Source of the DNA: Gemmatimonadales bacterium
Lineage (GTDB): Bacteria; Gemmatimonadota; Gemmatimonadetes; Gemmatimonadales; GWC2-71-9
Length of the DNA: 19,568 bases
Direction: 5' to 3'
NCBI GenBank assembly: GCA_039794085.1
Contig: JBDIWC010000062.1
Location: 1 to 19,568 of the forward strand
This document shows, one piece after another, positions 1 to 17,405 of the stretch. Position 1 is the stretch's first letter, and each line of letters begins with the position of its first letter. A program made the position numbers and the translations under genes. Under the pieces are notes generated by a model that was not told the DNA's origin, ran no database searches, and saw nothing but the letters and a program-made list of their open reading frames with translations.

Positions 1-164
1 CGGACGCGAGGCTGGACCCCGGTGGACGCGGTAGCCCTCAATCCACCCAAGCAGGAATCAACCCACGCGGCCACTCCCGAAGCGGCCGCATGAAGGCTCA
101 TGCGACAACTATCTTGACATTTACCGGTGCCTGCACGTCGCAGAGCCCGCCGTGACCAAGCGAT

Positions 165-298
165 TGGTGTTTCCCGGGGCTGACGCCCCTTGCTCGGCCA
201 GGGGAGGTGGCTCACGCCACCGAGGAGCCCGGGCGAACACCCGGCCGTGTGAACGGCCTCTCGCCGCCGAGCCCGGGGCGAAAGCCCCGGGGAAACCA
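165..298. other. Dense multi-hairpin structured region (candidate ncRNA or ssDNA structure)
   Basis: Stems GGGGC-TGAC-GCCCC (176-189), GGTGGC-TCAC-GCCACC (206-221), CCGGG-CGAACA-CCCGG (229-244), GGCCGT-GTGA-ACGGCC (243-258) and CCCGGGGC-GAAA-GCCCCGGG (272-291). Long-range pairs GCTCGGC(192-198)/GCCGAGC(266-272) and imperfect TGGTGTTTCCC(165-175)/GGGAAACCA(290-298). No credible CDS here. Confidence 0.45.
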
Positions 299-398
299 CG
301 CGACCCCGAGGCGCCTCTTTGGTTCCGGCTGTGCCGGCCTAGGGAAGTCCGCAATGCTCGTCACGCATCGCAGTTCATCAGGTGGCCACGGGTGGGGA

Positions 399-899
399 TC
401 AAGCGGCCCGCCCGGATGCGGCAGAGCGAAGAGTCTGAATGCACCAGTGCCACACGGCTGCATAGGCCTCGCGCTTCGCATCGGTGTCGAGCATGGTCCA
501 GGCAACCTTCACGTACGTTTCAGTTTTTCGCTCCGGTCCGACCAGATCCCCGAGCTGATCCAGTACACGGAGGCGATATCCTTCCACATCGAAGGCGCAG
601 CCCTTGAGCGCCTCCCTGACCTGGCGGAAGTTCAGGTCCGGCGCCGCCACTGGCGATAGCGTCCCGACCCTGATCAGCTTTGGAGAACGGGTAAGGGTGC
701 GCGGTACCTTCAATACGATGTGCCTGTGCGGCTTCTTGCTCGTGGCCGGCATGCTGCAATGCAGATCCGCACCCTCCGCATTCGCCCTGTGCAGCATTTC
801 GTCCAGTACCATGGCCGCCTTCCGAACCCCGTCCGCCTTTTCGGGATCAGCAGGTAGGGCAGCGAAGAAGGTAATAGGCAGGAACGCTGGCTGGGACAT
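399..899 (-). CDS. Hypothetical protein (~166 aa)
   Basis: ORF track 399..1013. The ATG at 899 (MSQPAFLPITFF) has GGAGG 8 nt upstream. An alternative GTG at 1013 overlaps the NYN stop. Protein-like composition; no family recognised. Confidence 0.6.
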   Translation of the reverse strand: MSQPAFLPITFFAALPADPEKADGVRKAAMVLDEMLHRANAEGADLHCSMPATSKKPHRHIVLKVPRTLTRSPKLIRVGTLSPVAAPDLNFRQVREALKGCAFDVEGYRLRVLDQLGDLVGPERKTETYVKVAWTMLDTDAKREAYAAVWHWCIQTLRSAASGRAA

Positions 900-1009
900 C
901 TGATGAACCTCCGCTCTCTGGAAAGGTAAGACATCGCTTTGGTGATCGTTGTGACTGCATCTCGCCCCCTCTGACCCCCTTGGGGTAACCCCCGGTTCCA
1001 TGAGCGCAC

Positions 1010-1618
1010 TCACTCCGGAGCCACCAGGGTCTCCATCATGTCATCGAGAAACAGGTGATTCCAGCAGGCGTTCCGCAGTTCGTTGGCGTGGCCCCGAAAC
1101 CACACATGGGTTACCTGCTTCATCCGCCCGCCGAGGAACTCAACAGCCGGAACATGATCGGCATCTCCAGCCAGAAGCAACGCCCTGTCGTAATGGTCGT
1201 CGAGTCCGTAGCGGATCATGTCGGTCACGATGGCCGTGTCCACTCCCTTCTCGACTGTGCGTCGAAGGGCCTTTCCGCAATGTGGGCAATCCACGATCGG
1301 CATCCGGCAGCCGTCACTGGAGCACCGTTGCGGGTTCAGCGCCTTCCGCTCCTTGACCACGACGGTATATCCTGGGAAGCCGTCCATCGTATTCACAAGA
1401 AATCTCTTCAGGGATGCATCCTTCACGCTTGCAGGATCATAAGACGCATAGACGTGAGTTCCCGCATAGACGGCACTGGAATCCACGGCAGCGACCAGAG
1501 TGGTGTACAATACGGGATGCCAGGGAATCCGCACCACGGACTCCCGCCCTCGCCGCGTGAAATACTCATTCCACGCCAGCTGAAGATTCCAGAAATCAAC
1601 AAAGATTTTTACACGCAT
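1010..1618 (-). CDS. NYN domain (LabA/DUF88, PIN-fold) ribonuclease with Zn-ribbon insertion, 202 aa
   Basis: N-terminal IFVDFWN, EKGVD and LLLAGDADH acidic motifs typical of NYN. CSSDGC...CPHCG insertion just before EKGVD. RBS GAGGAG 6 nt upstream of the ATG. Confidence 0.9.
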   Translation of the reverse strand: MRVKIFVDFWNLQLAWNEYFTRRGRESVVRIPWHPVLYTTLVAAVDSSAVYAGTHVYASYDPASVKDASLKRFLVNTMDGFPGYTVVVKERKALNPQRCSSDGCRMPIVDCPHCGKALRRTVEKGVDTAIVTDMIRYGLDDHYDRALLLAGDADHVPAVEFLGGRMKQVTHVWFRGHANELRNACWNHLFLDDMMETLVAPE

Positions 1619-1687
1619 TGGATGCTCCTCGAGTTGTGGTTGCGTTCAGGGTCGCAGAATCGCGAAAAAACCACACAATGTGGTTCC

Positions 1688-1717
1688 AAAGAAAACGGGG
1701 AGCCTGGCGGCCCCCCG
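1688..1717 (-). terminator. Intrinsic terminator in the NYN leader
   Basis: Minus strand CGGGGGGCC-GCCA-GGCTCCCCG (9-bp stem, one G-U) followed by TTTTCTTT. Confidence 0.8.
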
Positions 1718-1767
1718 GGGATATAATTCTCTCAGAGTCGGAAACTCCGAGAGGGGATTTAATGTGA
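1688..1767 (-). ncRNA. Putative ~80-nt structured small RNA or attenuator leader upstream of the NYN RNase
   Basis: Bounded by a promoter (1773-1801) and a terminator (1688-1717). Contains hairpin CTCTCGGAGT-TTCCG-ACTCTGAGAG (1753-1729; its G-U pair forms only on the minus strand). Confidence 0.55.
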
Positions 1768-1772
1768 ACAGT

Positions 1773-1801
1773 AATCTAGCACCCACGGATCAGGCTGTCA
1801 A
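1773..1801 (-). promoter_or_regulatory. Sigma70-type promoter
   Basis: TTGACA (1801-1796), 17-nt spacer, TAGATT (1778-1773), with extended -10 TGn. Confidence 0.75.
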
Positions 1802-1848
1802 GACCGAGGTATGGGACCCCCGCTTCCAGCCGGAAAGGACTCTACACT

Positions 1849-1934
1849 CACCACAGAGGCACAGAGGGGTTCCGTGGATCTATCGTGCATTCTCAGCACC
1901 TCTTTTCTTCTGTGCCCTCTGTGCCTCTGTGGTG
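1849..1934. repeat. Perfect 20-bp inverted-repeat element (REP/MITE-like) overlapping the HNH 3' end
   Basis: CACCACAGAGGCACAGAGGG (1849-1868) and its exact reverse complement (1915-1934), with a 46-nt spacer. The arms are built from tandem CACAGAGG units. Confidence 0.85.
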
Positions 1935-2722
1935 CACTGGAATACGTGCTCCCGGTGCCACTTGAGGTACACCCCATGCCCCGGCGCGAGCCCGCGGACC
2001 CGCACCGCTCCCCCGTCGACCCCGAGCACCCGCCGTTCCACCGCGCCGAGCGAGCGCGACACCAGCACCACGCCGTCCTCCCCCACCGCGATCAGCCCCG
2101 CGTCGAATGCCGCGTCGAGGTGCGCCACCAGCAGCAGCCCGTTGTGCACGTCCAGCCGCTCCCGGTCGGTGGCGTCCTTCCACGGCTTGGCGTGGGACGC
2201 CCGGAGCAGCGCCTGTTCGGTGCACCCGGTAATGGCGCAGCGGCCGCCCCAGTACTGTTCCAGCGCGGCCCGGAAGTGGTCCTGGCCCACCCGCTGCAGC
2301 ACCTCCGCCAGCCGCTCCGTCTCACCCTGTCCCTCTGTGGCCTGCTCCGCATCCGCCACCTCCCGTTCCCAGCGCCGGAGCACCTGGTCGGGGAGGACGT
2401 GGCCCAGGATCGCGATCCGGCGGCAGAGCCGGTCGAGGGCCTGCCAGTCGGTGCAGTGCCAGCGGCCGGCGGCTCCCTCCGGGGCCGTGCCTTCCACCGG
2501 AGCGGCGCCTGCCACGGGCCCCACCTCCGCGGTGACGGCGGCGGGAGCGGCGGCGGCCCGGATCCCGCCCCCGTCACCGCCGGCGTCCATGGCGAGCCAG
2601 AGTGTCGCGAGGTTGCCGCTGGCGCGGAACACGAGCCACTCCCCCGCGTGGTCGGGGCCGAGATCGAACCCCGCATCCCGGGCCCGCATCCGCAGCAGCG
2701 TCTCATCCTGATGGCTCGGCAT
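1880..2722 (-). CDS. HNH endonuclease (HNH_2-like), ~280 aa, last gene of the helicase-methylase operon
   Basis: QRVGQDHFRAALEQYWGGRCAITG...LLRASHAKPW...NGLLLVAHLDAAFD signature. The ATG at 2722 overlaps the methylase stop (TGATG). Confidence 0.9.
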   Translation of the reverse strand: MPSHQDETLLRMRARDAGFDLGPDHAGEWLVFRASGNLATLWLAMDAGGDGGGIRAAAAPAAVTAEVGPVAGAAPVEGTAPEGAAGRWHCTDWQALDRLCRRIAILGHVLPDQVLRRWEREVADAEQATEGQGETERLAEVLQRVGQDHFRAALEQYWGGRCAITGCTEQALLRASHAKPWKDATDRERLDVHNGLLLVAHLDAAFDAGLIAVGEDGVVLVSRSLGAVERRVLGVDGGAVRVRGLAPGHGVYLKWHREHVFQCTTEAQRAQKKRGAENAR

Positions 2723-5700
2723 CACCGGGTCCCGACCAACCGGTCCCACGCCTCGAGAACGAGGCGTCGTGTTCGGTACTCACCGTACTTCTGGAGTTCT
2801 CCGTCACGGAGACCTCTGAAGGTCTCGCTCGGGTAATCCTCACCATAACAATCTTGCGGCGACAGGACATACTCCAGATCTTGTCGCGTGAGCCCATACC
2901 TACTTGCAACAATCGCGTCGAGTTCTGCCTGGAGGACCACCCTACGTTCCGGATCCCATGCGTACGGACCTCGGCCAGATCTCCAAGCATTCTGGCCGAG
3001 CTTCCGCATTGCTTCGGCAACCTCCTCATAGAATGGCGTGAGGTGTACACTGGTGAAGGATAACTCCAAGACCCGAGACACCACTTCGGTCACGAGATGT
3101 ATGGGCCATGTCTCGGGAGGAGGAACAGCGAGTTGGCGTAGATAGGTATAAGTCAGGTGGAGGCCAGTAATCTTGAGTCTCGCAACGTAGTCACACGTTA
3201 GGGAATTGAGCGTGGCCAGCAGAACCGCCGACGTCATGCCGGAACTACCAGCGATAGCCCGGTCGGTGAAGATCAGAGGAGCTGTGTGGCCAACTGCCAC
3301 CCTGGGGATCAAGGATGTGATTACCGTCCTCTCATTCGTGGGAGCTGTGATGTCCTTGAACGCCAAGAACCAATTGCGATCGGTCCTTGTCCGTAGGCGC
3401 TCTATGACGACTGCTTCAGGCACCCAGTAGTACGGCCGCACGGTGTACTCAGGATCTTGGTACTTCTCGATCGGTGTTTCCGGCAGAACCCGGTAACCGC
3501 GCCCATCGTCCCGGGTCTCGAACGAGCCAAAACGGTGGTCGTACTGGTGGATCATCTTGGCCTCGTACAGCGGCACCAGCCCCGGCCCCGGCTCCGTCTC
3601 GAACAGATCCGAATCGTTTGACATGTCGAACAGTCTTGCGAACGAAATCCCCCACGGGTTCCCGTCCTCCCGGGTCTCATCCCAGAGCACCGGCACGTTC
3701 CGGTAGATCTTGGCCGTGAGCTCGGCGTCCGCCCGGGACCGGAAGATCGGAGCCGTCCCGGTGTTCGGATTGAGCCGCCTCAAATCCTCGGCAGAGAGCG
3801 TGAAGAGCCGCCGCGCATCGAACCGCTGCTCCGGCCGGGTCAGGAAGAAGGCGAACGACGGCTCCTCCACCGCCCCGATGGTGAGGAGACAGAACTTCTG
3901 GCGCGAATCCACAGCCGGAAAGAGTCCCTCCCGGTTCTCGAAGTCCACCAGCGACACCAGCCTTCCCTCGGCCACATGCCGGAAGAACGGCGCCGTCCCC
4001 GCATCGCTCGCGATCCCAGAGGGCAGCACCATCCCCGCCCTCCCCTCGTGGCGCCGGAGCCGCAACCCCGTCTCGGCAAAGAGGGCATACAGATTGACGT
4101 CCCCCACGCCGGTGAGCGGGAACCGCCCGCTGTCGTGCGCAAAGACACTCGCCCCTTCCGCCTCCTGTTTCGCCGCCTCGAACCGATCGAACAGACGTCG
4201 TTCGGCGCTTCCCGCGGGCGCCCTGCCCAGCTCCTCGATGAGCGTCTGCCGGCGGGACTTGTTCTGCGCCGCGGCAATCTCGGGTGCCCGGCTCTCGAAG
4301 AACTCCTTCTCCTGCAGCTTGAGCTTTTCCCAAGGGGGGTTCCCCACCACGCAGTCGAACCCGCCCCGCGCCATCACCGGCGCGAAGGTGATGGGCCAGT
4401 GCAGGAAGGGCACGCCCGCTGCCACCCGGCGCACCTCGTGCCGGACCGCCTCGTGCGGCGGGATCCCCTGGGCCAGGTTCCGGAGAGTCCCGGTCGTGGG
4501 CACCGGAGCCCCGGGGTGCTTGGGGATGAGAAATGCGGCGACATACGCGTCGCACGCGAAGCGGAACCGGTCATCCTCCCCGGCCCAGGTCTCCTGCAAC
4601 GCCTTCCGCTTGGCCCCGATCTCCTCCAGCGTGCCGTCCGGCATCGCGTTCACCGCCGCCAGCCGCTCGGCCCACGCCGAGGAGTCGAAGGTCATGGTGT
4701 ACTGCCCCGCGTCCCGCTCCTCCTTCAGCGCCTTCCGCTGTTTGGCGTTCTCCTTCCGCAGGTCGCCGGCCGTCTTCCTGTCATCGCCGGTGAGGGGCTT
4801 GAACGCGGCGTCGGGGATCCCGCCCTCGAGCACCGCCGGGTCGAGGATGCCGAGAATCGCGTCTCCATGCACCAGGTGGTGATCCAGAAACGCCAGCGGC
4901 TTGCCCGGTTCCATCGCCTCCAGCCAGAGGGCAATCCGGGCCAGTTCCACCGCCATGGGGTTCTTGTCCACCCCGTGGATGCAGCGCGCCATCACCTCGC
5001 GGAGCGCCGCGCGGTATTCCCGGTGCCCGGGGGTCCCGTCGCTCCGGAGCCGGGCCAGGTGCGCCGCGAGCCGCCGGGCGGCGCCGAGCAGGAAGTGGCC
5101 GCTGCCGCAGGCGGGGTCGAGCACGGCGAGGTTGAGCAGCGCCTCCTCGGGGTGGGCGGCCCGCAGGGCGCGGTCCACCACCGGGTCGAGCGCGGTGTCG
5201 AGCAGGGCCTGCACCAGGGAATCGGGGGTGTAGTAACTCCCGGTGAGCTTCCGCGCGTGCCCGGTTCCCGCCGCCTCCTCCCCATCGCCCAGAAAGCCGA
5301 ACCCGCTCGCCCCCTCGTCCACCCGCGGCACCAGTTCGAGGAGCGATTCGTACACCGAGCCGAACTCCTCGGTCCCCATGTCCCGCCAGTTGACCCTCAC
5401 CCGGGCATGGTTCTGCTCCAGCCAGGTGAGGCGGAAGAGCGCCTGGAACAGGGCGGCGTTGCCGAGCCGGGCGGTGTCGAGGTCGGGGCATTGATCGGTG
5501 GCGAAGAGCCCGCCCAGGGCCGGGAGCGCCAGGAGCGGCTCCCCGGCGGCGCAGCCGCGGAACACCACCCGGAGTCCGATCCAGGAGTCGTCGTGCCGGT
5601 CATGGGCGCGGCGGCGCGCGGCCCGTTCCCGCAGCCGCCGGAGGGAGTACCCCTCGTCATAGGCGCGCGATGCGTCGTCCGCGCTCCCCGGCGGGTGCAG

Positions 5701-6606
5701 CAGGTCCCGCTCCTCGGCCACCAGCAGAAAGATGATGCGGTAGACGAGCCGCAGGAGCTGCTGATGGTATCCCGACGCATCGAGTTGGCCATTCGTGAGG
5801 CGGTGGCGGAGCGCCTCATTGGCGGGATGCGCCAGGAATCCGTTGCCGAGGGTGCGGAGCGCCGCCTCGACACCATCCCGCAGCTTGTCCCGCGCCGCGA
5901 CTCCGGCCGCCAGCGACTCTTCGCGCCACCGTTCGAGAATCGCCTCATGCGCCAGGCCCGATCGGGCGGCAAACCGGGACTGGTGCAGGAGGAGCCAGAG
6001 GAGGGAGAAGTCGGCGTAGCGCTGCTCTCCCATGATCCGGCCAAGATCGGCCTCGATCCAGGCGGGCCGGGTGAGGGAGGCGTTGTCCCGCACCAGCCGG
6101 AGGAGCCGTCCGTTGGTCACCACTCCCCAGAGCGCCTTCTCCGAGGCGTTGAGGTACTCCTGCACCAGCCCGAACGGAGACCTCCTCTTCCCGTCGCCAA
6201 ACTGGGCGGCGCCCTGGTCGAGGTCGTGACCCGGAGGAGCCACCACGACGGGCACCTGCTCCCCCGCGGCGAGGCCGGTCAGAGGAAAGAGCCGGTCATC
6301 CACCACGACGGGAGTGTTCACCGGCTCCAGCGAGTGCCATCCGAAGGCCTGGGTGAGGAGTGCCAGCACGGCGCGCCGGTGGGCCGCCTCGTTCCCCGAC
6401 CCATCCACATCCTTCCAGTGCGCAGCCGCGATGCGCCAGGCCCGGCCGATCTCGTCCCGAATGGTGATGCCCCGCGGGACCTCGTAGTGCTTCTCCTTCT
6501 GGTGTTCGGCCCCGAGTGCCGCGACCCGTGCCAGGTAATCGGGGGTGAAGAGTCCCCCCTCGATGGAAACCGCCTCGAACATGACGTGGGGTGCGCGGCG
6601 GGTCAT
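2722..6606 (-). CDS. Large N6-adenine DNA methyltransferase (type IIG/Eco57I-like, DrmMI-like) with C-terminal target-recognition region, ~1294 aa
   Basis: GSYYTP, motif I LDPACGSGHFL, motif IV VGNPPW, FGSVYESLLE and WGVVTNG. The ATG at 6606 overlaps the SNF2 stop (ATGA); the ORF-track start at 6801 is a likely over-extension. Confidence 0.93.
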   Translation of the reverse strand: MTRRAPHVMFEAVSIEGGLFTPDYLARVAALGAEHQKEKHYEVPRGITIRDEIGRAWRIAAAHWKDVDGSGNEAAHRRAVLALLTQAFGWHSLEPVNTPVVVDDRLFPLTGLAAGEQVPVVVAPPGHDLDQGAAQFGDGKRRSPFGLVQEYLNASEKALWGVVTNGRLLRLVRDNASLTRPAWIEADLGRIMGEQRYADFSLLWLLLHQSRFAARSGLAHEAILERWREESLAAGVAARDKLRDGVEAALRTLGNGFLAHPANEALRHRLTNGQLDASGYHQQLLRLVYRIIFLLVAEERDLLHPPGSADDASRAYDEGYSLRRLRERAARRRAHDRHDDSWIGLRVVFRGCAAGEPLLALPALGGLFATDQCPDLDTARLGNAALFQALFRLTWLEQNHARVRVNWRDMGTEEFGSVYESLLELVPRVDEGASGFGFLGDGEEAAGTGHARKLTGSYYTPDSLVQALLDTALDPVVDRALRAAHPEEALLNLAVLDPACGSGHFLLGAARRLAAHLARLRSDGTPGHREYRAALREVMARCIHGVDKNPMAVELARIALWLEAMEPGKPLAFLDHHLVHGDAILGILDPAVLEGGIPDAAFKPLTGDDRKTAGDLRKENAKQRKALKEERDAGQYTMTFDSSAWAERLAAVNAMPDGTLEEIGAKRKALQETWAGEDDRFRFACDAYVAAFLIPKHPGAPVPTTGTLRNLAQGIPPHEAVRHEVRRVAAGVPFLHWPITFAPVMARGGFDCVVGNPPWEKLKLQEKEFFESRAPEIAAAQNKSRRQTLIEELGRAPAGSAERRLFDRFEAAKQEAEGASVFAHDSGRFPLTGVGDVNLYALFAETGLRLRRHEGRAGMVLPSGIASDAGTAPFFRHVAEGRLVSLVDFENREGLFPAVDSRQKFCLLTIGAVEEPSFAFFLTRPEQRFDARRLFTLSAEDLRRLNPNTGTAPIFRSRADAELTAKIYRNVPVLWDETREDGNPWGISFARLFDMSNDSDLFETEPGPGLVPLYEAKMIHQYDHRFGSFETRDDGRGYRVLPETPIEKYQDPEYTVRPYYWVPEAVVIERLRTRTDRNWFLAFKDITAPTNERTVITSLIPRVAVGHTAPLIFTDRAIAGSSGMTSAVLLATLNSLTCDYVARLKITGLHLTYTYLRQLAVPPPETWPIHLVTEVVSRVLELSFTSVHLTPFYEEVAEAMRKLGQNAWRSGRGPYAWDPERRVVLQAELDAIVASRYGLTRQDLEYVLSPQDCYGEDYPSETFRGLRDGELQKYGEYRTRRLVLEAWDRLVGTR

Positions 6607-9422
6607 GCCGGCACCTCGGGAATGGGAAGGAGCACCCAGGCCCCGATCACATCCACCGGTTCCACCGCTCGGACGCTGTACTTGCCGCGAGCCCCCGAGG
6701 CGTCCCGCACCCGCCGGTGATCGGCCAGGAGGGTCTCGGCGCGAGCCCGGGCCACGCGAGCCAGCACACCGGCCAAGGCCTCCCGCTGGCCGGTGAGCCA
6801 TTCGAGCTGGCCGGCGCGCGGGTTGGCTGCGAGGGTGCCGGCCGGTTCCGCGAGGAGGAGCGCCGAGGCCTCGGCGTCGGTGAGAGGAGTCTCCTCACCG
6901 GCCACGACCGCAACGGGGAGTGCCTCCTCCACCATCGCGACGGTGGACACCCCCTCCCGGACGGTGGTCAGTTCGTGCCGAAGCCGGGCCAGGAGAAGCA
7001 CCGTGCGCCGGGTGACGGCCGCGGTGGGCCAGACACCGGTTCGCCCCAGGACGGCGGGATCACTGTGCACCCCATCCGCATCGAGGGTGCGTTCCAGCAG
7101 CGCCTCGGCGAGAGTCATGACCAGGGGATGACTCCGGCGCACCGGTATGGCATGGCCGGTGGCCCGATCACCAGGCACCACGCGGATCTTCCGCGCATCC
7201 AGGCCCTGGGCATCGAGCCGCTCGCGGATGGCGGGGGGGAGTTCTCCCAGCTCGATGGTCAGGATCCCGCGGGCGTTCTCCGCCGGTTCGCTCCCCAGGC
7301 GGGTACAGGCGCGCCGGAGGAAGCGGGCCAGTTCGGCCGGGTCGCCGAGCGCCTGCTGGGCCCGGTCGAACTCGGGTTGAACCTCGTCGGGCTTGAGCTT
7401 GCGCTGCGCGAACTTGGTGAAGGTCTTCCGGGCCCGCTCCTCGGCGTCGCGCCAGGCAGTCTCCATCGCCAGGCCCTCGGTGGTCTCGAAGAGGTCGAGG
7501 AGGATCTGGTCGCGCCCTCCGCCACTGCGCCGCCGGAGGAGCACCGCCTTGAGGAGCGCCTCGGTGAGCCGGTTCTCGTCGTCCGGCAGGGGCACGGCCA
7601 CGCCGAGCCGCTCGGCGATCTTCCTGGCCTTGCGGAGAATCACATCGAGGACGGCACCATCCACCGGATTGTTCTCGCCGATCATCAGGGTGGCGCGCAC
7701 CACGGGGCGGGTCTGGCCGAAGCGGTCCACCCGGCCCTCGCGCTGCTCATGGCGGGTGGGATTCCACGACAGGTCGTAGTGGACCACGGCATCGAAGTGT
7801 TCCTGCAGGTTCACGCCCTCGGAGAGGCAGTCGGTGGCCACGAGGAGACGGCGCTCGTGCTCGCCCATCGCGTCCACCGCCTCGCGCCGCGCCTCGGGTG
7901 GGAGTTCGCCGGTGACCACCGCGATCTGCACGTCCTGGAACCTGGTCCGGAGGCGTTCGGCCACGTGGTGCGCGGTGGCGATATAGTGACAGAACACGAT
8001 GGGGGAGAACCCCTCCTCGAGGAGTTGTTCGAGGTGGCGGGAGAGGGTGGCGAGTTTCGGGTCGTTCCCATCCCCGGCCAGAGTCACGGCCTGTCCCAGC
8101 AGCGCCCGGAGTTCGGGGTCTCCGGAGTCGGCACCCGGCTCGAGGTCGTCGGTCGCCTCACCGCCTGTTTCCTCGGCGTCGAGATCGAACACCTGAGCCG
8201 CGAGACGGTCCACCGCCTCGGGATCCTCCGGCCGGGCAAGGCGGGTGCGGAGGGCGCGGGCGGCCGCGGCCGGCGAGGAGGTGACACAGCGCAGGAGGGC
8301 GAGGGTGCCCCAGAAGGCGAGGCGCCGCTCCCGGGCACCCTCGCCCGCCCCCTCGGTGACTCCCTCGCAGTAGCTGAGCACTGCTTCGAGGAACTCCTCC
8401 CACGCGCCGGTCAGGCGGTAGGTGAGGTCCATCGTTTCGCGTTTCGGGAAGAGCTTCTCATCGTGCCACTCCCGGATGTCCAGGCGGCGGCGCTGCACCA
8501 GGTGGTGCGCCAGGCGGTCGCGGGTGGCGTCGGCGAGGGCGGAGTCCACTCCCTCCAGCGCGGCGAAGTCGGGATGCAGGAGGGCCAGGAGCCGGACGAA
8601 GGCGGTCTCGTCGCCGCTGTGGGGTGTCGCGGTGCAGAGAACGGCGTGACGCCGGGGGTCGTCGAGCAGGGTCTTGAGGAGGAGGTACCGCTGGTGCCGA
8701 GTGCCCGTGCCGGTGGTGCAGGTGTGGGCCTCGTCCACGACGATGGCCCCGGGGCAGCTCCGGGCAAATTCATCGCGCCGCCGGTCGCTCTTGATGTAGT
8801 CGAGGGAGACGACAGTGAAGGGATGGGCCTCGAAGAGTGACGTACCCTGGGGAAGGCCCCGTTCCAGCCGGCCGGCCGAACCGGCGGTGACGGCCTCGGC
8901 GGGGAGGTGGAACCGGGTGCGCATCTCCACCACCCACTGCTCCACGAGGTGGGGCGGGCAGAGCACGGCCAGCCGGCCGATTTCGCCCCGGTCATAGAGC
9001 TCCCGGGCGATGAGAAGCGCCTCGATGGTCTTGCCGAGTCCCACGTCGTCGGCGATGAGGAGGCGGACCGGCTCCTGCCGGAGCGCCATCATCAGTGGAA
9101 CGAGCTGATAGGGTCTTGGGGTGACGTCCACCTGCCCGAAGGAGCGGAAGGGACCTGCGCCGCGTCGGAGCGAGAGACGGAGCGCGTCGTGGAGGAGGAG
9201 CGCCTCGGTGTGGTTCCCTTCCCGGCCCTGGGACGGCCAGGGGAAGGCGGCGTCGGCGACGTCGGGTTCGAGCCCGGTGTGGATGGTGGTGGTGTCGTCC
9301 TCACTGCCCGAGAGGGGGCGGAGCCGGAGGAGCGGGCCCGCGCTGTCGGGCAGCACGACCCATTCGCGGCCTCGCGCGCGCACCAGGGTCCCGGGGACAT
9401 ACTGCCGGGCCGGGGCGGTCAT
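6603..9422 (-). CDS. SNF2-family helicase (DrmD/RapA-like), ~939 aa
   Basis: LLIADDVGLGKT (Walker A), VVDEAH, TATPH, SEGVNLQ and QREGRVDR; N-terminal GTLVRARGREWVV. The ATG at 9422 overlaps the upstream stop (ATGA). Confidence 0.93.
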   Translation of the reverse strand: MTAPARQYVPGTLVRARGREWVVLPDSAGPLLRLRPLSGSEDDTTTIHTGLEPDVADAAFPWPSQGREGNHTEALLLHDALRLSLRRGAGPFRSFGQVDVTPRPYQLVPLMMALRQEPVRLLIADDVGLGKTIEALLIARELYDRGEIGRLAVLCPPHLVEQWVVEMRTRFHLPAEAVTAGSAGRLERGLPQGTSLFEAHPFTVVSLDYIKSDRRRDEFARSCPGAIVVDEAHTCTTGTGTRHQRYLLLKTLLDDPRRHAVLCTATPHSGDETAFVRLLALLHPDFAALEGVDSALADATRDRLAHHLVQRRRLDIREWHDEKLFPKRETMDLTYRLTGAWEEFLEAVLSYCEGVTEGAGEGARERRLAFWGTLALLRCVTSSPAAAARALRTRLARPEDPEAVDRLAAQVFDLDAEETGGEATDDLEPGADSGDPELRALLGQAVTLAGDGNDPKLATLSRHLEQLLEEGFSPIVFCHYIATAHHVAERLRTRFQDVQIAVVTGELPPEARREAVDAMGEHERRLLVATDCLSEGVNLQEHFDAVVHYDLSWNPTRHEQREGRVDRFGQTRPVVRATLMIGENNPVDGAVLDVILRKARKIAERLGVAVPLPDDENRLTEALLKAVLLRRRSGGGRDQILLDLFETTEGLAMETAWRDAEERARKTFTKFAQRKLKPDEVQPEFDRAQQALGDPAELARFLRRACTRLGSEPAENARGILTIELGELPPAIRERLDAQGLDARKIRVVPGDRATGHAIPVRRSHPLVMTLAEALLERTLDADGVHSDPAVLGRTGVWPTAAVTRRTVLLLARLRHELTTVREGVSTVAMVEEALPVAVVAGEETPLTDAEASALLLAEPAGTLAANPRAGQLEWLTGQREALAGVLARVARARAETLLADHRRVRDASGARGKYSVRAVEPVDVIGAWVLLPIPEVPA

Positions 9423-12400
9423 GCGCCGTCCACCTTCAGATAATTTGCCAGCCGGGCAAAGCGGTCGGGCCACACCGACTCGTCGGCGGGAAAGATGAAC
9501 AGGGTGGTCCCTTCGAGGTCGAGCCGTTCCCGCACCGTGGCGGGGGTGTCGGGGAGGATCACCGCCGCATAGGAATGAGGCCAGCGCGGCGCCTGGTTGT
9601 CCTCCAGGATCCACCGCGGGAGTGTGACCCCATCGCGGTGCAGCGCCGCAAGCCACTTGCCCAGCCATCCGGAGGGGGGGGCCTCCTGCGCGGGGTCGGG
9701 CGGAGTCGGGAGGGAAGGGTCCGGTTGGGGACGGAGTTCGGCCCGGGTTCCCGCCAGACGGAGGAGGATGGTGCGGGCCTCGGCGTCGCGGCGATCCACC
9801 AGGTCGTGGTCGGGCTGATTGTAATAGGAGAGAAGACAGCGGTAGCAGGCGCTCACGCACGTGCTCTCCTCATCCCGCAGCTCGCCGACAGTGGGAGAGA
9901 TGGCGGGTCTTTCTTCCGGCAGGTCGAGATGCATGAGCCGCAAGGCCTCCCAGGCCACCTGACCCAGGGCCTCGGGTTCGTGCACCAGCCGGGTCAGCAC
10001 CCCGGCGCCCCCTTCGGTCGCTTCGTAGAAGAGGAGGCCGGTGCGGCGGTCGCGATCGGGGAGCGGCTCCACGAGGAGTTCTCCCTCCTCGAGCTGATAG
10101 ACCACGTCCAGGGCGCGGCGAAGGGCGTGCTGGAGCGTGGCCCGGGTCACATCGCTCATCCCGCCGTCCTCGACGAACCGCACGTGCAGGGCATTCTTCT
10201 GCTCCTGCACGAACGGCACCACCCGTTGCGGAGGAACCCTGCCCGGATCCGGGTCTCCGTCTCCCCCGTCCTCGTCCTCCGACTTGCTCCACCAGCCGGT
10301 GCGCGGATTGATGTGGAACCCGTGGACCCGCCGTTCCTTCCGGCGCCGGAGTCCGAGATTGATGCGGGTGACGGTGGCGGACGCGGCGTACTGCATCACC
10401 AGGATCGGCCCCGCGGCATCGTCCACCGGCACGGTCTGCACGCTGATGCTCCCGCCCCGCTCGGGCCAGCGGAAGGTGGTGATGAGTTCGAAACCCTGGC
10501 GCTGGCGTTCCTCGTCGTCGGCGGTGATCCGCTGCGTCGGCCGGGTGTCCACATGCTCGATCCGGAGGAGACTCCTGACCATCATGGCGTCGCCGAGCCC
10601 TTCGCCGCAGGCGTGGCATTCGTTGTGGTGGGCCTCGAAGTGGCTTGCGCCGCAGCATCGGCAGATGCGGACCTCCTGCACCGGGAGCTGCCCCGCCTCG
10701 GGGCTGGCGCCTTCGGTCTGGCCACCCAGCCGAACCCGCATCACCCGATAGGTGCGTCCCTCATGATAGACCAGGGCCCGGGGGCCAAACTCCGCGAGAG
10801 CGAGGAACCGGGGGCGCTGAACATAGGCCTGTTCCTTGTCCCGTTCGCCCGGAATGCAGGCCAGCAAGGGGAGGCGCGGAAAGTTGTACCCGGGAAGAAA
10901 CCCCTCGGTGGCCAGGTAGCGGTAGAGGTAGAAGTCGCTGGTGCTGGTCTCGCTTCCGTCCCGGAGGGCCTGGATCAGGTCGGCGGCGATGTTCTGATCC
11001 CGCTTGGCCTGATCGTAGGCCTTGCGGTCCCGGGTGTGGTCGTCGAGCACCTTGCGGGCCTCGTCGCGCTGGCGCAGGGCGCTCCGATAGAGGGACCGCC
11101 ACCGGTCGAAGGCGCGCTCGAACTGCTCCAGTGCGCCCGAGGTGATCTGGGCGGCGAACTCGTCGCGGCCCGGGTACCACGGGGCCCGGTCAGGGGTCAG
11201 CTCCTCCGCCAGCAGGTCGAGGATGCGTCCCGAGCTGGCCGCCGCGGCTTGGGCCGCCTCGGTCCGTGCCAGGGCGGTGCGCAACGCTGCGTCCACCGGC
11301 TCTTCCACCCCCGGCGTGAGGTCGAGCACCTCCGCGATCGCGGTGGGCAACGGCTGTTCCGACGAGGCCAGCCAGACCGCCTGGAGGTGGGACGCGATCA
11401 GGTCCCGGTTGGCCAGGTCGAGCAGCGGGGGCCGGACCTCGCCATGCACCATGTCCTGCTGCCGCCGGAAAAAGTACTGATCGTGCGGTCCCCGGGCCGA
11501 GCAGTAGGTCACGACCAGGGCTGCCATGCCACTCCGCCCGGCGCGCCCGCTCCGCTGAGCGTAGTTCGCGGGTGTCGGGGGCACGTTGCGAAGATAGACG
11601 GCATTGAGCGCCGAGATGTCCACCCCCAGTTCCATGGTGGGGGAACAGAAGAGGAGGGGGAGGAAGGTCGGACGCTCCCCCTCCTCTCGCGCCGTCGTCG
11701 TGGTGCGCAGTTCCCGTTGTTCTCCCTCGCCGAACCGGAAGCGCTTTTCGCGGAGAGCGCGCCGCACATTGGGCACCTGGGCGGTGTGGGCCTGGGCCTC
11801 GAAGCCGAAGAGCGGGTTGTCGGCCCCGCGCAACTGCTCCACGACGTTCCGGTAGAAGGCGACGAAGAACGGATTCGCGCCCTCGTCGGGGTCACCGGCG
11901 TGATACCGGACCGTGTCGGCGGCGAGGCGCCATCCCGGGATCCGGAACGGCGTCGAGGGTTCGTGCGTGACGAATCCGTGGAAGCGCAGGAACTCGAGCG
12001 TGGCCGAGAGGAGGGCGTCGTAGTCGGCCCGGCTCGGAGTCCAGGCACCCTGCTGGCCCCAGAGCTCCGCCCGGCGGAGCGTCCTGCCGAAGCCCGTCTG
12101 GAAGCCGCCCCGGAGGAGGCGATCCCGGTCCTTGGCACTGGCCGTCTTCGGCGCCCCCACGGTCATCCAGGTGGGAACCCGAGGGTGTTCATCGGGGGCG
12201 ATGGCCCATCCCGGTTGAAGCCTGTTCCGGCTGGCCTCCTGCAGCTTCTCGAACTCGACCCGCTCGAAGGCCGGCGCCTCGACGGCGGATCCGAGCCGAA
12301 GGTGATCCAGAATGGTGCGGAACACATTGTACCGGGTCTCCGGGGTGGCGCCCGCGAGTGTGCCCGGAGCGCGTGCCATGGCCGCGTCGTCCGCCACCAG

Positions 12401-14722
12401 ATCGCGGAGCCGGTGGTACTCCACCCGGAGGAGGCCCAGACGTTCGAGGGTGGGATTGGTATAGCGCCATCCCCGCCGCTGGTCGAGCCACACCCGGTAG
12501 GCCAGCACCTTGCGCAGCACGGCCGCATCATCCTCGAACTTCCCTGGCGAGACATCGGGATCCGCCATCCAGGTGGCCCGGTGGGACTGGTCCGCGGGGA
12601 CACCCGGAGGAAGCGGCGCGTCAAATCCCAGCGCCCGCTGCACCGCGGCCCCGATCTCAGCGAGGGTGAGTCCCGCGTCTCCGGCGTCGGCCGCGGCGCG
12701 CAGCATCGCCCCCCGCAGAAGAGCCACGAAGATGAAGTCGTTGAAGTGCCCGGCCTGCAGGGCCGCATCCTGGCGGTTATCGGTGAAACCGAGCAGTTTG
12801 CGGCTGTGGCGGGTGAGGGCATCCTCCCGGTGCATCCAGCTCAGTGCAGACCAGGTGAGGACGGTGGTGGCCGAGGAGCGCCCCTCGGCGGAGAGGGAAG
12901 CGAGGCGGGTCATGTCCTTCCCCTGTGCCCCCCAGACCTCACGGCATCGCAGGCAGTAGCGGAACTTGCCGGGCGTGAACCAGGCGGGCTGGCCCTCCCC
13001 GGCAACGGTTCCGTCCGGTGCCACCGCCACGCCCACCGCCTTGTACCTCCGGTAGTTCGCCTTGAGCCGCAGAGATCCATCCTTCCGTTCCTCCAGCCAC
13101 TCCTCCGGGTAGTCGGAGTCCTCCCCGCTGAACGTGAACCCGGGGTCATCGGCCGGCTCGAGGGTGAGGAATCCCAGAACCTCTCGCTCTCCATCCTCGG
13201 TCGTGTCGTCCTCATCGTCGGCGGCGCGCAGGGGAGCATCATCGATGCTGCGGGGCAGAAAACAGAGTTCGGGGGATTCCCGGCGGCGGACCGGATGGTA
13301 CTCGTGTCCGCAGAGACGGCAGAAATGGGTCTCGTAGAGCCGGACTCCCGGTTCACCGGGCAGGAAAGGTTGTGCGTCGAGACTCACCCTCCGCGTTCCC
13401 GGCCGTTCCAGCGTGGTGTACGCCGTCCCGGCACCGGAGAAGAACTGGTGCAGCTTGAACGCGAAGAACGGTTTGTCGTTGCCGGCCGGGTTCCCGGTCC
13501 GCTCCCGCTCCGGGCGCGCCGCAACGAGGAGAAGGTCTGTCAGGGCGCGTTCGCAGTCGCTCCGCGGCACACCCGAGCTCTCCGCAAGCAGGTCCACCGC
13601 CTCCCGCATGGTCCGGGGTCTGGTGCGGAACCACTTCCCGTCGGGTTGCCGGGTGATTCCGATCGTGGTTTCGACCCAGACCGCGAGGGGGTGCCGGGCG
13701 ATATCCTGGTCGGTCATCTTCTCGGGGATCCCCGACTCGATGGCGGCCGCGAGACGGGGTGCGACGGTGTCCGCCGTCTCGTTGGTGTCGGTGGCGCGGA
13801 TCAGGGTTTCGGTCACCACGTTGGTCGGCGGGATCGTCGTGGCGAAGATGCGGGATGCCACCCGGGCGATCGCCTCCTTCCGATCCGTGAAGCTCCCTTC
13901 CGAGGCCATCGTCGCCGAGGTCCCGACGCAGATCAGACCGGGGGCGGCGAGGCGCTCCCGGACGCGGCGGACCAGCATCGCCACATCCGCTCCCTGGCGT
14001 CCCCGGTAGGTGTGCAATTCGTCGAGAACGAGGAACTCGAGTGGGGCGCAGTTGGCCATCACCTGACGGTCGAGTTCATCCTGCCGGGTCATCAGGAGCT
14101 CGAGCATCATGAAGTTGGTCATCAGGATGTCAGGCGGGTTGTTCCGGATGCGCTCCCGCTCCTCGGCGCTCTCCTGGCCGGTGTACCGCGCATAGGACAC
14201 CAAGGGCGGGGACCAGCGCCCGGGGAACTTGCCGAGTTCTTCGACCTGTGAATTGGCCAGCGCATTCATCGGGTAGACGATGAGTGCCCGGGTGCGGGGG
14301 GTGTTGTCCCGGGCCTTGGCGCGGAGGATCGCGTCGATCAGGGGGATGAAGAAGCAGAGGGACTTTCCGGACCCCGTGCCGGTGGTGACGACGAAGCTCT
14401 CCCGCTGCCCGGCGAGGGCCAAGGCCTGGCGCTGGTGGGTATGGAGAGTCAGGGGGCTCCCGGCCCCGGTGGCGCTCCGGTCATCGGTCCGGAAGATCCG
14501 GCCGGTATCGGAGTGGAGCGTTCCCTGCCGGACCAGAGTATCCACGTCCTCGGCGGGCTGGAACAGGGGATTGAGCTGCACGAGGGGGTCGGGCCAGTAG
14601 CGCCCGCCCTGGTAGGCGAGTTCCACCTGGGAGCGAATGTCATCCGCCCGGATGGTGGTGAACGATCGCGCAAAGCGCTGATAGTCCTCAACGAGGGTGT
14701 CGCGGAGGTTGAAGACGTCCAC
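9419..14722 (-). CDS. Large DEAD/DEAH SF2 helicase with C-terminal DUF1998-like Zn domain (YprA/DruE/DrmA+B-like), 1767 aa
   Basis: TTGTGSGKS, YPMNALANSQ, LDELH, TSAT, SPTMELGVDI and QRSGRAGR. Cys pairs CRLC, CLRC and CRCC..CHAC; EATEGGAGVL and CVSACYRCL (DUF1998-like). GTG start with GGAG 7 nt upstream. Confidence 0.93.
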   Translation of the reverse strand: MDVFNLRDTLVEDYQRFARSFTTIRADDIRSQVELAYQGGRYWPDPLVQLNPLFQPAEDVDTLVRQGTLHSDTGRIFRTDDRSATGAGSPLTLHTHQRQALALAGQRESFVVTTGTGSGKSLCFFIPLIDAILRAKARDNTPRTRALIVYPMNALANSQVEELGKFPGRWSPPLVSYARYTGQESAEERERIRNNPPDILMTNFMMLELLMTRQDELDRQVMANCAPLEFLVLDELHTYRGRQGADVAMLVRRVRERLAAPGLICVGTSATMASEGSFTDRKEAIARVASRIFATTIPPTNVVTETLIRATDTNETADTVAPRLAAAIESGIPEKMTDQDIARHPLAVWVETTIGITRQPDGKWFRTRPRTMREAVDLLAESSGVPRSDCERALTDLLLVAARPERERTGNPAGNDKPFFAFKLHQFFSGAGTAYTTLERPGTRRVSLDAQPFLPGEPGVRLYETHFCRLCGHEYHPVRRRESPELCFLPRSIDDAPLRAADDEDDTTEDGEREVLGFLTLEPADDPGFTFSGEDSDYPEEWLEERKDGSLRLKANYRRYKAVGVAVAPDGTVAGEGQPAWFTPGKFRYCLRCREVWGAQGKDMTRLASLSAEGRSSATTVLTWSALSWMHREDALTRHSRKLLGFTDNRQDAALQAGHFNDFIFVALLRGAMLRAAADAGDAGLTLAEIGAAVQRALGFDAPLPPGVPADQSHRATWMADPDVSPGKFEDDAAVLRKVLAYRVWLDQRRGWRYTNPTLERLGLLRVEYHRLRDLVADDAAMARAPGTLAGATPETRYNVFRTILDHLRLGSAVEAPAFERVEFEKLQEASRNRLQPGWAIAPDEHPRVPTWMTVGAPKTASAKDRDRLLRGGFQTGFGRTLRRAELWGQQGAWTPSRADYDALLSATLEFLRFHGFVTHEPSTPFRIPGWRLAADTVRYHAGDPDEGANPFFVAFYRNVVEQLRGADNPLFGFEAQAHTAQVPNVRRALREKRFRFGEGEQRELRTTTTAREEGERPTFLPLLFCSPTMELGVDISALNAVYLRNVPPTPANYAQRSGRAGRSGMAALVVTYCSARGPHDQYFFRRQQDMVHGEVRPPLLDLANRDLIASHLQAVWLASSEQPLPTAIAEVLDLTPGVEEPVDAALRTALARTEAAQAAAASSGRILDLLAEELTPDRAPWYPGRDEFAAQITSGALEQFERAFDRWRSLYRSALRQRDEARKVLDDHTRDRKAYDQAKRDQNIAADLIQALRDGSETSTSDFYLYRYLATEGFLPGYNFPRLPLLACIPGERDKEQAYVQRPRFLALAEFGPRALVYHEGRTYRVMRVRLGGQTEGASPEAGQLPVQEVRICRCCGASHFEAHHNECHACGEGLGDAMMVRSLLRIEHVDTRPTQRITADDEERQRQGFELITTFRWPERGGSISVQTVPVDDAAGPILVMQYAASATVTRINLGLRRRKERRVHGFHINPRTGWWSKSEDEDGGDGDPDPGRVPPQRVVPFVQEQKNALHVRFVEDGGMSDVTRATLQHALRRALDVVYQLEEGELLVEPLPDRDRRTGLLFYEATEGGAGVLTRLVHEPEALGQVAWEALRLMHLDLPEERPAISPTVGELRDEESTCVSACYRCLLSYYNQPDHDLVDRRDAEARTILLRLAGTRAELRPQPDPSLPTPPDPAQEAPPSGWLGKWLAALHRDGVTLPRWILEDNQAPRWPHSYAAVILPDTPATVRERLDLEGTTLFIFPADESVWPDRFARLANYLKVDGA

Positions 14723-14806
14723 GGGTGGTCTCCGCAGGCCCGGGCCGACACCACATCCGGTGGGGCCAGGAACCTGCTTCAGGGTTGGTTGGGCTACTGA
14801 TAACTC

Positions 14807-14815
14807 AAATTAGCA
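14807..14815 (-). promoter_or_regulatory. Possible extended -10 promoter of the defence operon
   Basis: TG-C-TAATTT in a short AT-rich patch ~85 nt upstream of the helicase start; no clear -35. Confidence 0.3.
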
Positions 14816-14987
14816 CAGGGCTGCGACAAACACCTCCCCCTGGGGAGTTTTCCCAGTGTCCCCCTGGGCGTTCCCTTCAGCGCTGGGCCCCGGCCTCGGC
14901 GAACCGGATGAGTATTCCCATGAAGGCTCCCCCCCTGGATTCCTGCCTATCCCCCGTGGAGCGGTCGGGCACCCGTCGGTTTCGGGC

Positions 14988-15962
14988 TCAGGTTCCCGTC
15001 TCGGATGCACCCTGCCGTTCGCGCCATCGAAGCGCGAGTGCGCTTGGCCGGAACTTCTCGTTTGCCGGCAGGTCCAGCCTTTGCCCGTCGAATTGCCCGT
15101 ACTCACCCCCCTTGAGCGTTGCATCCATCACGACCCGGTAGTCGGCCGGCTCCACATTGAGGAGGCCGAGGTCGAACAGGGTGTGGAGGTCGCTCCGGAG
15201 AAGGATGCCGTTGGTCACGGCCTGGGTGTCGTCTCCCCGGTACGGGTAGATATGGGCCGCCTCCAAAACCTCCACCGTGGAGCACCCCGAGATGGCACAT
15301 CGTTCCCCGTAGGCCTCGAGAAGTGCCTTCCGAAATGCGGTTTGTCCCCGCCGGTCCTTGATCGAGGCGAGGCGTCGCTCTTCGTCCGCATCGATGGCGT
15401 CGGGGTCAAATTCTGCCCCGGTGAGGGCGTCCGCTTCCGCGTCACCCGTGCCGAATCCCCCTACCGTCGTCGCGGCCAGCGCACCTGGTGGAGGATTGCG
15501 AGCCTGAGAAGGAAGTCTTCCGTCCGCCACCCGAACATCCCGGAGAGCGGCTCCAACCAGATCCAGCAATTCGCTCACGTTCGCAGGGTTCGCCAGAAAC
15601 GGGAGCTTGATGACCCCGTACCTTCCGGGCTTACCTCCCATACCGGGTACGAGACGACTCAGCGAGGCTTGGTACGAATCCATGCGTTCCTGTGAGTTGA
15701 AAGGGGCGACTCTACCGAGATCGTAGTAAATGAGGTCAATCTGGCCGTCCCTCGCATTGAAGGAAAGAACTTTTACTTGCCCGTTTCTCCCGTCGTCATG
15801 GGAAACATACAGATGATAGGTAGGAGCCTTGTCCGTTGCCGGAGGTGTCAGCACCACATCTCCATGGACTTTGCTCTGATCCATGATCCATCTCATCACC
15901 ACTTCCTGCGACTTCAGTTTGTCCTTGAGCCACGCACGGGAGAACCTATCGAGGTCGACCAT
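14988..15962 (-). CDS. HNH endonuclease with unrecognised N-terminal domain (putative type IV-like restriction nuclease), 324 aa
   Basis: C-terminal RRGQTAFRKALLEAYGERCAISGC...LEAAHIYPY...NGILLRSDLHTLFD; AAGGA upstream of the ATG. Confidence 0.9.
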   Translation of the reverse strand: MVDLDRFSRAWLKDKLKSQEVVMRWIMDQSKVHGDVVLTPPATDKAPTYHLYVSHDDGRNGQVKVLSFNARDGQIDLIYYDLGRVAPFNSQERMDSYQASLSRLVPGMGGKPGRYGVIKLPFLANPANVSELLDLVGAALRDVRVADGRLPSQARNPPPGALAATTVGGFGTGDAEADALTGAEFDPDAIDADEERRLASIKDRRGQTAFRKALLEAYGERCAISGCSTVEVLEAAHIYPYRGDDTQAVTNGILLRSDLHTLFDLGLLNVEPADYRVVMDATLKGGEYGQFDGQRLDLPANEKFRPSALALRWRERQGASETGT

Positions 15963-16143
15963 TTATAACGTTCCTTAATTGGGCAAAGGGGTGACCGATG
16001 TGATCCTGACAACCGACGCCTAGATTCAGATGCCGGTCCCGGCGCAGTCGTCTTCATGCCGGCAGCTCGTCACGAGACACATGAGTTCATGGTGGCACCA
16101 CACGAGGTAATGCTCGATCCAATGTAGCGTGGGGGTGTGACAA

Positions 16144-16236
16144 TCACACCTCGATCGTCACCTCGCGGACAGTCGTCGGTTCCCAGACCGGCGGAACAGA
16201 GCCCCGTCCCGAGGGAAGTCCATCAGCCTCGCTCAT
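16144..16236 (-). pseudogene. Probable remnant of a HEPN (DUF86) toxin gene
   Basis: An ATG overlapping the MNT 3' end reads MSEAD..., at the position where the HEPN partner normally starts. The frame ends after 30 aa with no RxxxxH motif. Confidence 0.4.
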
Positions 16237-16528
16237 ACTGCGTCTCGGCGGTTCGGATGACCTGGTCTCTGAAATGATGCGACAGGTCCCGCGGGGTCCG
16301 GAGATCCACCTTGCGACTCCCGAACAGGCCCGCAAGCTCGATCTCCATTCCCGCCATCGCTATGAGCCCGGGCTCCCGCCCCGGCTCGAACTCAACCAGG
16401 AGGTCGATATCGCTGTCGGGACCCGCCGTGCCCGCCAGCACGGATCCAAAGAGCGACAGCTTCCGGATGCTGCGGCTGCGGCAGTAATCGGCCAGTATCC
16501 CGGGTGCGACGGGCAGACGAATGTTCAT
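16223..16528 (-). CDS. Minimal nucleotidyltransferase (MNT/MntA-type antitoxin), ~101 aa
   Basis: LSLFGSVL...DSDIDLLVEF and KVDL motifs; GGAG RBS before the ATG at 16528. Confidence 0.92.
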   Translation of the reverse strand: MNIRLPVAPGILADYCRSRSIRKLSLFGSVLAGTAGPDSDIDLLVEFEPGREPGLIAMAGMEIELAGLFGSRKVDLRTPRDLSHHFRDQVIRTAETQYERG

Positions 16529-16596
16529 CAGATTTCTCCGCGGTACGTCAGGTGCCGGGGTGCGACTCCCCCCCGAATCTCGGCCTTCGAAATCAT
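16528..16596 (-). pseudogene. Probable remnant of an AbiEii toxin gene (22 codons)
   Basis: ATGA overlap with the abiEi stop; reads MISKAEIRGGVAPRHLTYRGEI*; its stop overlaps the MNT ATG (TGATG). MISKAEI resembles AbiEii N-termini as I recall them. Confidence 0.45.
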
Positions 16597-17399: not shown

Positions 17400-17405
17400 G
17401 ATGGT

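Follow-up and report, generated by a model that had tools for sequence, protein, structure and literature searches.

Does a short structured RNA encoded in front of a small nuclease gene act as the antitoxin of that nuclease? The question is raised by a locus in a 19,568-nucleotide (nt) stretch of DNA from a Gemmatimonadales bacterium (assembly GCA_039794085.1, contig JBDIWC010000062.1, positions 1-19,568), called the window here, in which a promoter, an RNA gene, an intrinsic terminator and a gene for a NYN-type ribonuclease (RNase) follow one another on the minus strand. The RNA belongs to a conserved, apparently undescribed family that is not in Rfam. Together with the NYN protein it probably forms a type III-like toxin-antitoxin (TA) module, in which the RNA would bind the nuclease and neutralise it in trans. 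On our best reading, a fold of the NYN type has not been seen before in an RNA-antitoxin role.

The window locus and its RNA family

The module consists of the following elements, given in the order of transcription.

1773-1801, minus strand: sigma70-type promoter TTGACA-17-TAGATT with an extended -10, serving the RNA and, by read-through, the NYN gene
1688-1767, minus strand: predicted non-coding RNA of about 80 nt with two units, the candidate antitoxin, recognised by its fold and by a match to covariance model R1
1754-1762, minus strand: linker motif 1, UUA-NNN-YCC, right after the predicted +1
1729-1753, minus strand: hairpin 1, with 10-11 pairs, pairing kept and sequence variable
1718-1728, minus strand: single-stranded linker of 11 nt, the linker length in most homologues, containing motif 2 (1726-1718)
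1688-1717, minus strand: intrinsic terminator, the final hairpin of the array (stem 1717-1696, U tract 1695-1688)
1625-1630, minus strand: ribosome-binding site (RBS) GAGGAG, from its sequence
1010-1618, minus strand: predicted RNase of the NYN (LabA/DUF88) type, 202 amino acids (aa), from Pfam, conserved residues, an AlphaFold2 model and Foldseek

The -35 element TTGACA (1801-1796) and the -10 element TAGATT (1778-1773) are separated by a 17-nt spacer, and the -10 element is preceded by TG. Two promoter-like sites are present in positions 1-4000, where 0.5 are expected, and this one scores best (10/12). We infer from the sequence a transcript that starts at about 1765-1767. The 80-nt segment folds with -36.4 kcal/mol (z = -5.1), a value equalled by none of 200 shuffles, and R1 matches it at 1688-1764 with 65.6 bits, the window copy belonging to the training set of the model. 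UUA-NNN-YCC occurs twice in this RNA, at 1762-1754 and 1726-1718, each time immediately 5' of a hairpin. The second of these hairpins is the terminator, with nine pairs, eight of them G-C, and the U tract after the stem. The stretch from the terminator to the RBS gives no folding signal for extra hairpins (z = -0.24). In the window's own 4.16-Mb genome, the RNA-first search finds a single copy. The Rfam scan of the window returns no match at gathering score, RF03085 included; a sub-threshold match to suhB (22 bits, gathering score 41) was rejected as the generic likeness of two hairpins.

Homologous RNAs were collected from 160 loci, namely the top 80 out of 300 genome matches and the top 80 out of 361 from metagenomes. 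A terminator could be parsed within 260 nt upstream of NYN in 137 of them, and removal of three mis-parsed loci leaves 134 RNAs, 122 of them unique. The terminator sits 11-113 nt 5' of the NYN start. UUA-NNN-YCC stands before the terminator stem in these RNAs as well, with frequencies that are inflated there because the register was picked within 3 nt by motif likeness. The upstream hairpin, which was found by folding alone, provides an independent test: the motif precedes it in 91 of the 122 unique RNAs and in 3.4% of control windows. The linker is exactly 11 nt long in 76 of the 122, and the repeat period is mostly 32-37 nt. In 66 of 86 homologous RNAs, compared with 30 of 1057 control windows, a promoter pattern has its end 0-50 nt upstream of the penultimate motif, and the distance between the two peaks at 5-10 nt and at 32-43 nt, corresponding to two- and three-unit RNAs. 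The RNA is thus an array of two or three linker-plus-hairpin units, and the terminator is the last unit. The original prediction had described an RNA free of tandem repeats, which is wrong, since the unit of motif and hairpin is repeated two to three times. The repeats are structural, and their sequences are not near-identical as in known type III antitoxins.

Covariation supports the fold. In a MAFFT alignment of 84 RNAs, each of the seven modelled pairs of hairpin 1 varies at both positions, and two-sided changes amount to 305 cells in all, against 98 in shuffled alignments and at most 145 when the pairing partners are slid. The model-fitted alignment, which leans to the model, gives 284 against 72 with 93% of cells paired; for hairpin 1 the paired fraction is 90% in the MAFFT and 97% in the model-fitted alignment. 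The promoter, hairpin, terminator and NYN gene proposed originally are real and conserved in homologues, and the covarying structure that was to be expected beside NYN relatives is found. Along the linker, the motif has a mean unpaired probability of 0.6-0.95. We take the linker sequence UUA-N-A to resemble anticodon loops with U34-A35, a likeness weakened by the U at position 5 in 15-30% of units. A peptide-coding role was rejected, as any ATG is present in only 29 of 86 RNAs. At the RNAs of 33 loci Rfam gives no match, and its only hits are tRNA and plasmid RNAI elsewhere in these loci.

Linkage to the NYN gene and changes of strand

R1 was scanned over the 160 loci, about 0.8 Mb. A match adjoins NYN in 148 of the 160 (137 at E <= 0.01) and one weak match lies elsewhere, a count that is partly circular because 94 of the loci hold an exact training sequence. 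The loci that carry both the matched RNA and NYN have tree labels spanning 16 phyla. Among the 12 loci missed, eight have their best unfiltered match at the expected place (E 0.014-2.5), bringing the RNA beside NYN to 156 of 160 when these weak matches are included. Three of the remaining four have 118 nt or less of upstream flank, and the fourth, L119, has a group II intron-like insertion. In L119, positions 1-375 carry the tail of a maturase and domain V/VI-like sequence, the 3' end of a group II intron, and lie just 5' of the NYN RBS; introns of group IIC are inserted downstream of intrinsic terminators.

Outside the training sample, the best match stands beside NYN in both new genome loci (L171 and L172) and in all five plasmids. 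RNA-first scans of 453 genomes from three phyla yield seven matches: five beside NYN, three of which are training copies, one orphan, and one ordinary terminator. The last, L183 at 30 bits, terminates a gene at its 3' end and was rejected as a family RNA, which means that R1 scores near or under 30 bits are not proof by themselves. The RNA-first search is insensitive: it scores only 31 candidates in each genome and passed over RNAs in genomes G078 and G088 that were found later, so that a blank is not evidence of absence. The RNA is tied one-to-one to the NYN with a predicted zinc ribbon and is close to specific for it. In L172 (G088), L037 and L067 the NYN gene has an internal stop or a frameshift and the RNA is still there.

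The layout is tandem, with both genes on the same strand, in 139 of the 148 R1 matches, and the RNA is on the opposite strand in 12 loci. Eight of these are convergent (L014, L029, L113, L115, L116, L122, L132 and L134), with a three-unit RNA just downstream of NYN. Four are divergent (L155, L041 with a weak match, and plasmids L189 and L190), with the RNA upstream of NYN. The relocated RNAs retain motifs and hairpins, and promoter-like sites where the flank shows them, next to NYN genes that are about 66-86% alike in DNA. The eight relocated NYN proteins that were checked have intact catalytic and cysteine motifs. Comparison of L113 with L123 shows the NYN open reading frame (ORF) with its RBS inverted relative to the RNA gene, the breakpoint falling between terminator and RBS. 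A single origin of the convergent form is rejected in a 26-row tree (approximately unbiased test, p-AU 2.2e-5), which calls for three to four changes, at least two of them forced by starred branches. Divergent forms fall in two distant clades of a quick 147-row tree, in which two frameshift-read rows give long branches. The orientation changes number at least four. Because opposite-strand copies are kept, from where attenuation cannot work, the RNA must be more than an attenuator and its action is likely in trans; an RNA that meets the protein in trans would be the one mechanism fitting tandem, convergent and divergent layouts alike. The core of the original proposal, a dedicated small RNA in a type III-like layout that would probably neutralise the NYN RNase, has passed the computational check set for it: the structure covaries beside homologues, the RNA is close to NYN-specific, and it is kept after strand flips. 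Its repeat-free form has to be given up, and the abortive-infection role also proposed is not supported by the gene neighbours, the phage records or the HEC-09 result described below.

A conserved ORF of about 100 aa lies about 300 nt upstream of the convergent NYNs L014, L029, L113, L122 and L132 and is probably another passenger gene of IS1-family elements. It was rejected as a protein antitoxin, being found with 4 of 133 NYN clusters and having no Pfam, NCBIfam or PADLOC match. In the window, ORF 399-1013 overlaps the NYN stop (GTGA), with a likelier start at about 899 that has its own RBS. This downstream ORF (1013-399) was likewise rejected as a protein antitoxin, as its relatives are confined to the window's genome and its closest relative and it has no family match. 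Positions 2722-14722 and 14988-18491 of the window form a defence island, with an Eco57I/DrmMI-like methylase, a DpdE/DrmD-like SNF2 helicase and a DruE-like DEAD/MZB helicase. The island also has three HNH proteins (1880-2749, 14988-15962 and 17853-18491), AbiEi (16593-17399), a nucleotidyltransferase (16223-16621) and a MazG-like protein (17525-17887).

The nuclease and comparison with known systems

The NYN ORF of the window matches PF01936 with E = 1e-9 and 39.5 bits (cut-off 24.2). This is its sole Pfam match, and a HEPN domain such as that of AbiF is not found. A word-index search gives 555 relatives, 74 of which were aligned; the full profile search gives 75 clusters at E <= 1e-30 and 3946 at E <= 0.001. 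Residues D8, D127, D152, D154, C99, C111 and C114 are invariant in the 74 aligned sequences, and C104 is present in at least 90% of them. The four aspartates are predicted to be catalytic, with the active site intact, and C99, C104, C111 and C114 are predicted to form an inserted zinc ribbon. The AlphaFold2 monomer model has a pLDDT (predicted local distance difference test) of 94. Its top Foldseek matches are VPA0982 (2qip, E = 2e-7) and the NYN of MARF1 (E = 8.5e-4). Positions 95 and 118 of the 2qip chain fall in the D127 and D152 columns, and we take them, with a 3-residue offset, to be D92 and D115 of PMC11346440.

The two-copy model of the protein has a dimer score of 0.47, a mark reached by 20 of 30 solved homodimers and by 1 of 23 single chains; the best control scores 0.00. 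Between runs, at least 98% of the contacts are shared, and the pLDDT of the partner is at least 89. By sequence 2qip is the only solved relative (E = 0.01), and the dimer is not copied from a template because a close solved relative is absent. The best-resolved contacts are made by C99 and C104 of one chain with C111 and C114 of the other, which suggests that the zinc sites may be swapped between chains. A NYN homodimer is thus supported by the model rather than shown.

The fold and catalytic aspartates of the window NYN are common to the NYN.COG1432/LabA-like group, VPA0982, the NYN of MARF1 and the CRISPR-associated NYN. In the available passages, the PIN classification lists the function of the NYN.COG1432 group as unknown (PMC5499597), and the CRISPR-associated NYN that has been characterised processes RNA with relaxed specificity (PMC11346440). 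These relatives are listed as of unknown function, clock-related or RNA-processing, and an RNA antitoxin is absent from those passages (PMC5499597, PMC11346440). A literature search that covered subscription journals thinly found no description of a NYN with an RNA antitoxin.

The module is not a member of ToxIN, CptIN, TenpIN or AbiF because the fold differs, there is no pseudoknot signal and there is no Rfam match. As far as the available part of the type III review goes, such systems have a promoter, repeats, a Rho-independent terminator and an RNase gene (PMC5086642). ToxIN/AbiQ, CptIN and TenpIN share with the window module the single promoter, the repeated RNA, the Rho-independent terminator and the RNase gene, and with the window family the variable repeat number and the occurrence on plasmids and near transposases (PMC5086642, same passages). 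This order of one promoter, RNA, terminator and toxin gene holds for the window and for the tandem R1 matches, though not for the 12 relocated loci. Their toxins have a MazF/Kid-like beta core, whereas the window protein has a PIN-like NYN fold with a zinc ribbon, being NYN rather than ToxN-like by both Pfam and Foldseek (PMC5086642, for the toxins). Their antitoxins are described there as near-identical pseudoknot repeats, whereas the window RNA combines a conserved 11-nt linker with a variable simple hairpin. The window family differs further in that the terminator itself is the last unit and the RNA gene is sometimes on the opposite strand. Another parallel in layout is the type III-like system AbiF/Abi_2 with its abiF-motif RNA, a short two-motif RNA that ends at a terminator and is followed by an RNase, dimeric in AbiF, of non-ToxN fold. 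According to the accessible part of that study, the AbiF RNA RCd22 has two motifs before its terminator and neutralises the dimeric HEPN RNase in cis and in trans (PMC12373285). AbiF has a HEPN fold and the window protein a NYN fold, the window has no RF03085 match, and neutralisation is experimentally shown for AbiF and inferred for the window.

HEC-09, a sister family separate from that of the window, resembles the window protein in being a stand-alone NYN with about 200 aa that is found in defence contexts. The window NYN matches the HEC-09 profile PDLC04163 (PADLOC) only in part (59 residues, 109-167; E = 1.8e-9). A second small NYN in the window's own genome (L180, G000:C38, gene at locus positions 1237-1869) matches it over the full length (E = 1.7e-41) and is of HEC-09 type; it is 23% identical to the window NYN over 103 aligned residues. 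There are 19 HEC-09-type relatives in 301 genomes; two partial matches, L202 and L204, were left out, and the upstream regions of the other 17 were read by eye. A hairpin, a terminator and a U tract are present in 16 of the 17 and a promoter pattern in 14, counts read by eye with no shuffle control. The RNA motif of this set (L180 and L191-L208) is a C-rich run before hairpin 1, often with GGCGCG before the terminator. It is analogous to that of the window family but different from it, is not matched by R1 and has no Rfam match. The words 'non-coding' and 'ncRNA' do not occur in the available main text on HEC-09 (10.1101/2024.01.29.577857). Other small NYN/LabA genes (L174, L177, L179 and L181) have promoter and hairpin leaders that mostly end in terminator-like stems, and the last linker of L179 resembles UUA-NNN-YCC.

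Possible roles of the RNA

If the RNA is an antitoxin, the module could work as follows. The promoter would make the RNA in excess over NYN mRNA, because most transcripts presumably stop at the terminator. Each linker-plus-hairpin unit would be one site for one protomer of the dimeric nuclease, giving two or three sites per RNA, and contact or cleavage would most likely take place at the conserved single-stranded UUA. A cut at this point would set hairpin monomers free, as happens in ToxIN. Once phage takeover shuts down host transcription, or the plasmid or IS element is lost, decay of the RNA would leave the RNase free to arrest growth, leading to abortive infection, addiction or both. Toxicity, RNA binding and cleavage, expression and phage defence are candidate properties of the module.

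The genomic context fits a selfish TA cassette. The family is patchy, present in 4 of 151 genomes of the phylum, and occurs on five plasmids of 6-12 kb; no conserved protein neighbour of NYN is found in the 160 loci. A patchy, plasmid-borne distribution with no conserved protein partner is as expected of a TA module. No neighbour recurs more often than an IS1-family transposase, present in the flanks at 25 of the 160 loci including four convergent ones (examples among the 25 are L014, L097, L103, L108 and L152), which suggests that the module rides as passenger cargo. Cultured hosts or small plasmids carry it in L070, L072, L186 and L188.

Several observations weigh against the antitoxin reading, in addition to the partial circularity of the linkage count. 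About 10 of 38 sampled loci have a neighbour with a defence or mobile-element domain (Eco57I, DUF3375, Schlafen/AlbA_2, integrase, transposases, AAA_21, HI1420), a figure based on up to four neighbours per locus, with 150 of the 165 ORFs picked by length and no background control. Many copies lie between housekeeping genes, and viral contigs and phage records hold no relative by protein or by two strict RNA patterns. Loop-to-linker pairing, in the one pseudoknot geometry tested, occurs in 23 of 91 RNAs against 21.5 when permuted, unlike ToxI and CptI. An orphan three-unit RNA with its own promoter, L163 (L168:3000-3130, G011:C102), is present in a 94%-complete genome with no family NYN. A HEC-09 member cloned with its native promoter region gave no protection from the coliphages tested, according to the available text (10.1101/2024.01.29.577857). 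The orphan RNA lies after FRG-like and nuclease-like ORFs and before a recD2-like gene, the names being given by sequence reading. A role in phage defence may still be called plausible for the module.

The alternative that survives best, although we consider it unlikely, also has the RNA as a trans-acting partner, but as the substrate, decoy or cofactor of a non-lethal regulatory RNase, for instance processed into hairpins with their own job. The linkage, the repeats and the strand flips fit it equally well; the relaxed-specificity processing by the CRISPR-associated NYN (PMC11346440, as far as its available passages go), the negative HEC-09 result and the orphan RNA speak for it. The pattern of a stand-alone, patchy, plasmid- or IS-borne two-part module with a terminator throttling the nuclease gene is rather that of a TA system. 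As a source of guides the RNA fits poorly: the first hairpin hardly varies among closely related three-unit RNAs, and the stems are self-paired, which gives the units little likeness to acquired ones.

A cis-acting leader, either an attenuator or a site in the NYN mRNA that NYN itself cuts for autoregulation, with the flipped copies as relics, is more doubtful still. The dominance of the tandem layout and the short distance from terminator to start agree with it. Against it, the 12 opposite-strand loci keep both motifs with diverged NYN genes and several origins. The terminator stem has a pairing probability >0.9 in 86 of 86 homologues, leaving no competing antiterminator fold. The RNA is not found before other gene families, five of the seven RNA-first matches being beside NYN. 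The motif is present at 1 of 40 terminator-like hairpins in the window's own genome, compared with 97 of 122 that are NYN-linked.

It is very improbable that the repeats are DNA-level sites, such as cassette or recombination ends of IS1-family passenger cargo, with promoter and terminator incidental. The frequent IS1-family flanks, convergent loci included, and the convergent form as an inversion with its breakpoint between terminator and RBS would suit such an element. On the other hand, the promoter-to-motif spacing is fixed, the U tract is on one side only, 64 of 86 loci have the stabler form of hairpin 1 on the transcribed strand and 13 on the other, the repeats are on one side of the gene only and most loci have no transposase. 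An antisense (type I-like) regulator of NYN mRNA is hardly credible: the mRNA leader may overlap the RNA gene in divergent loci, but most copies are on the same strand as the gene, and duplexes with the cognate translation-initiation region are no better than non-cognate ones (stronger in 48 of 86, means -30.2 vs -28.0).

The antitoxin reading can be widened. Small stand-alone NYN/LabA proteins could form a large overlooked RNA-antitoxin superfamily of third independent origin after ToxN and HEPN, each clade including HEC-09 being paired with its own hairpin-array RNA, and a zinc-swapped dimer would cleave the linkers at UUA, remaining attached to the hairpin units until released when phage shuts off transcription; this we regard as possible, with the balance somewhat against it. 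Protein-targeting RNA antitoxins have been described for RNases of the ToxN fold and lately of the HEPN fold, and a PIN/NYN case, if true, would be a third independent solution. The RNA grammar is simple, with a fixed linker and a variable hairpin. The family of HEC-09 carries an apparently unnoticed upstream RNA, which is a reason to retest it. Type III-like systems would extend to 16 phyla, where the 2016 review, in its available part, counted 8 (PMC5086642), and part of the NYN.COG1432 group, listed as of unknown function in the passages available (PMC5499597), would gain a testable function.
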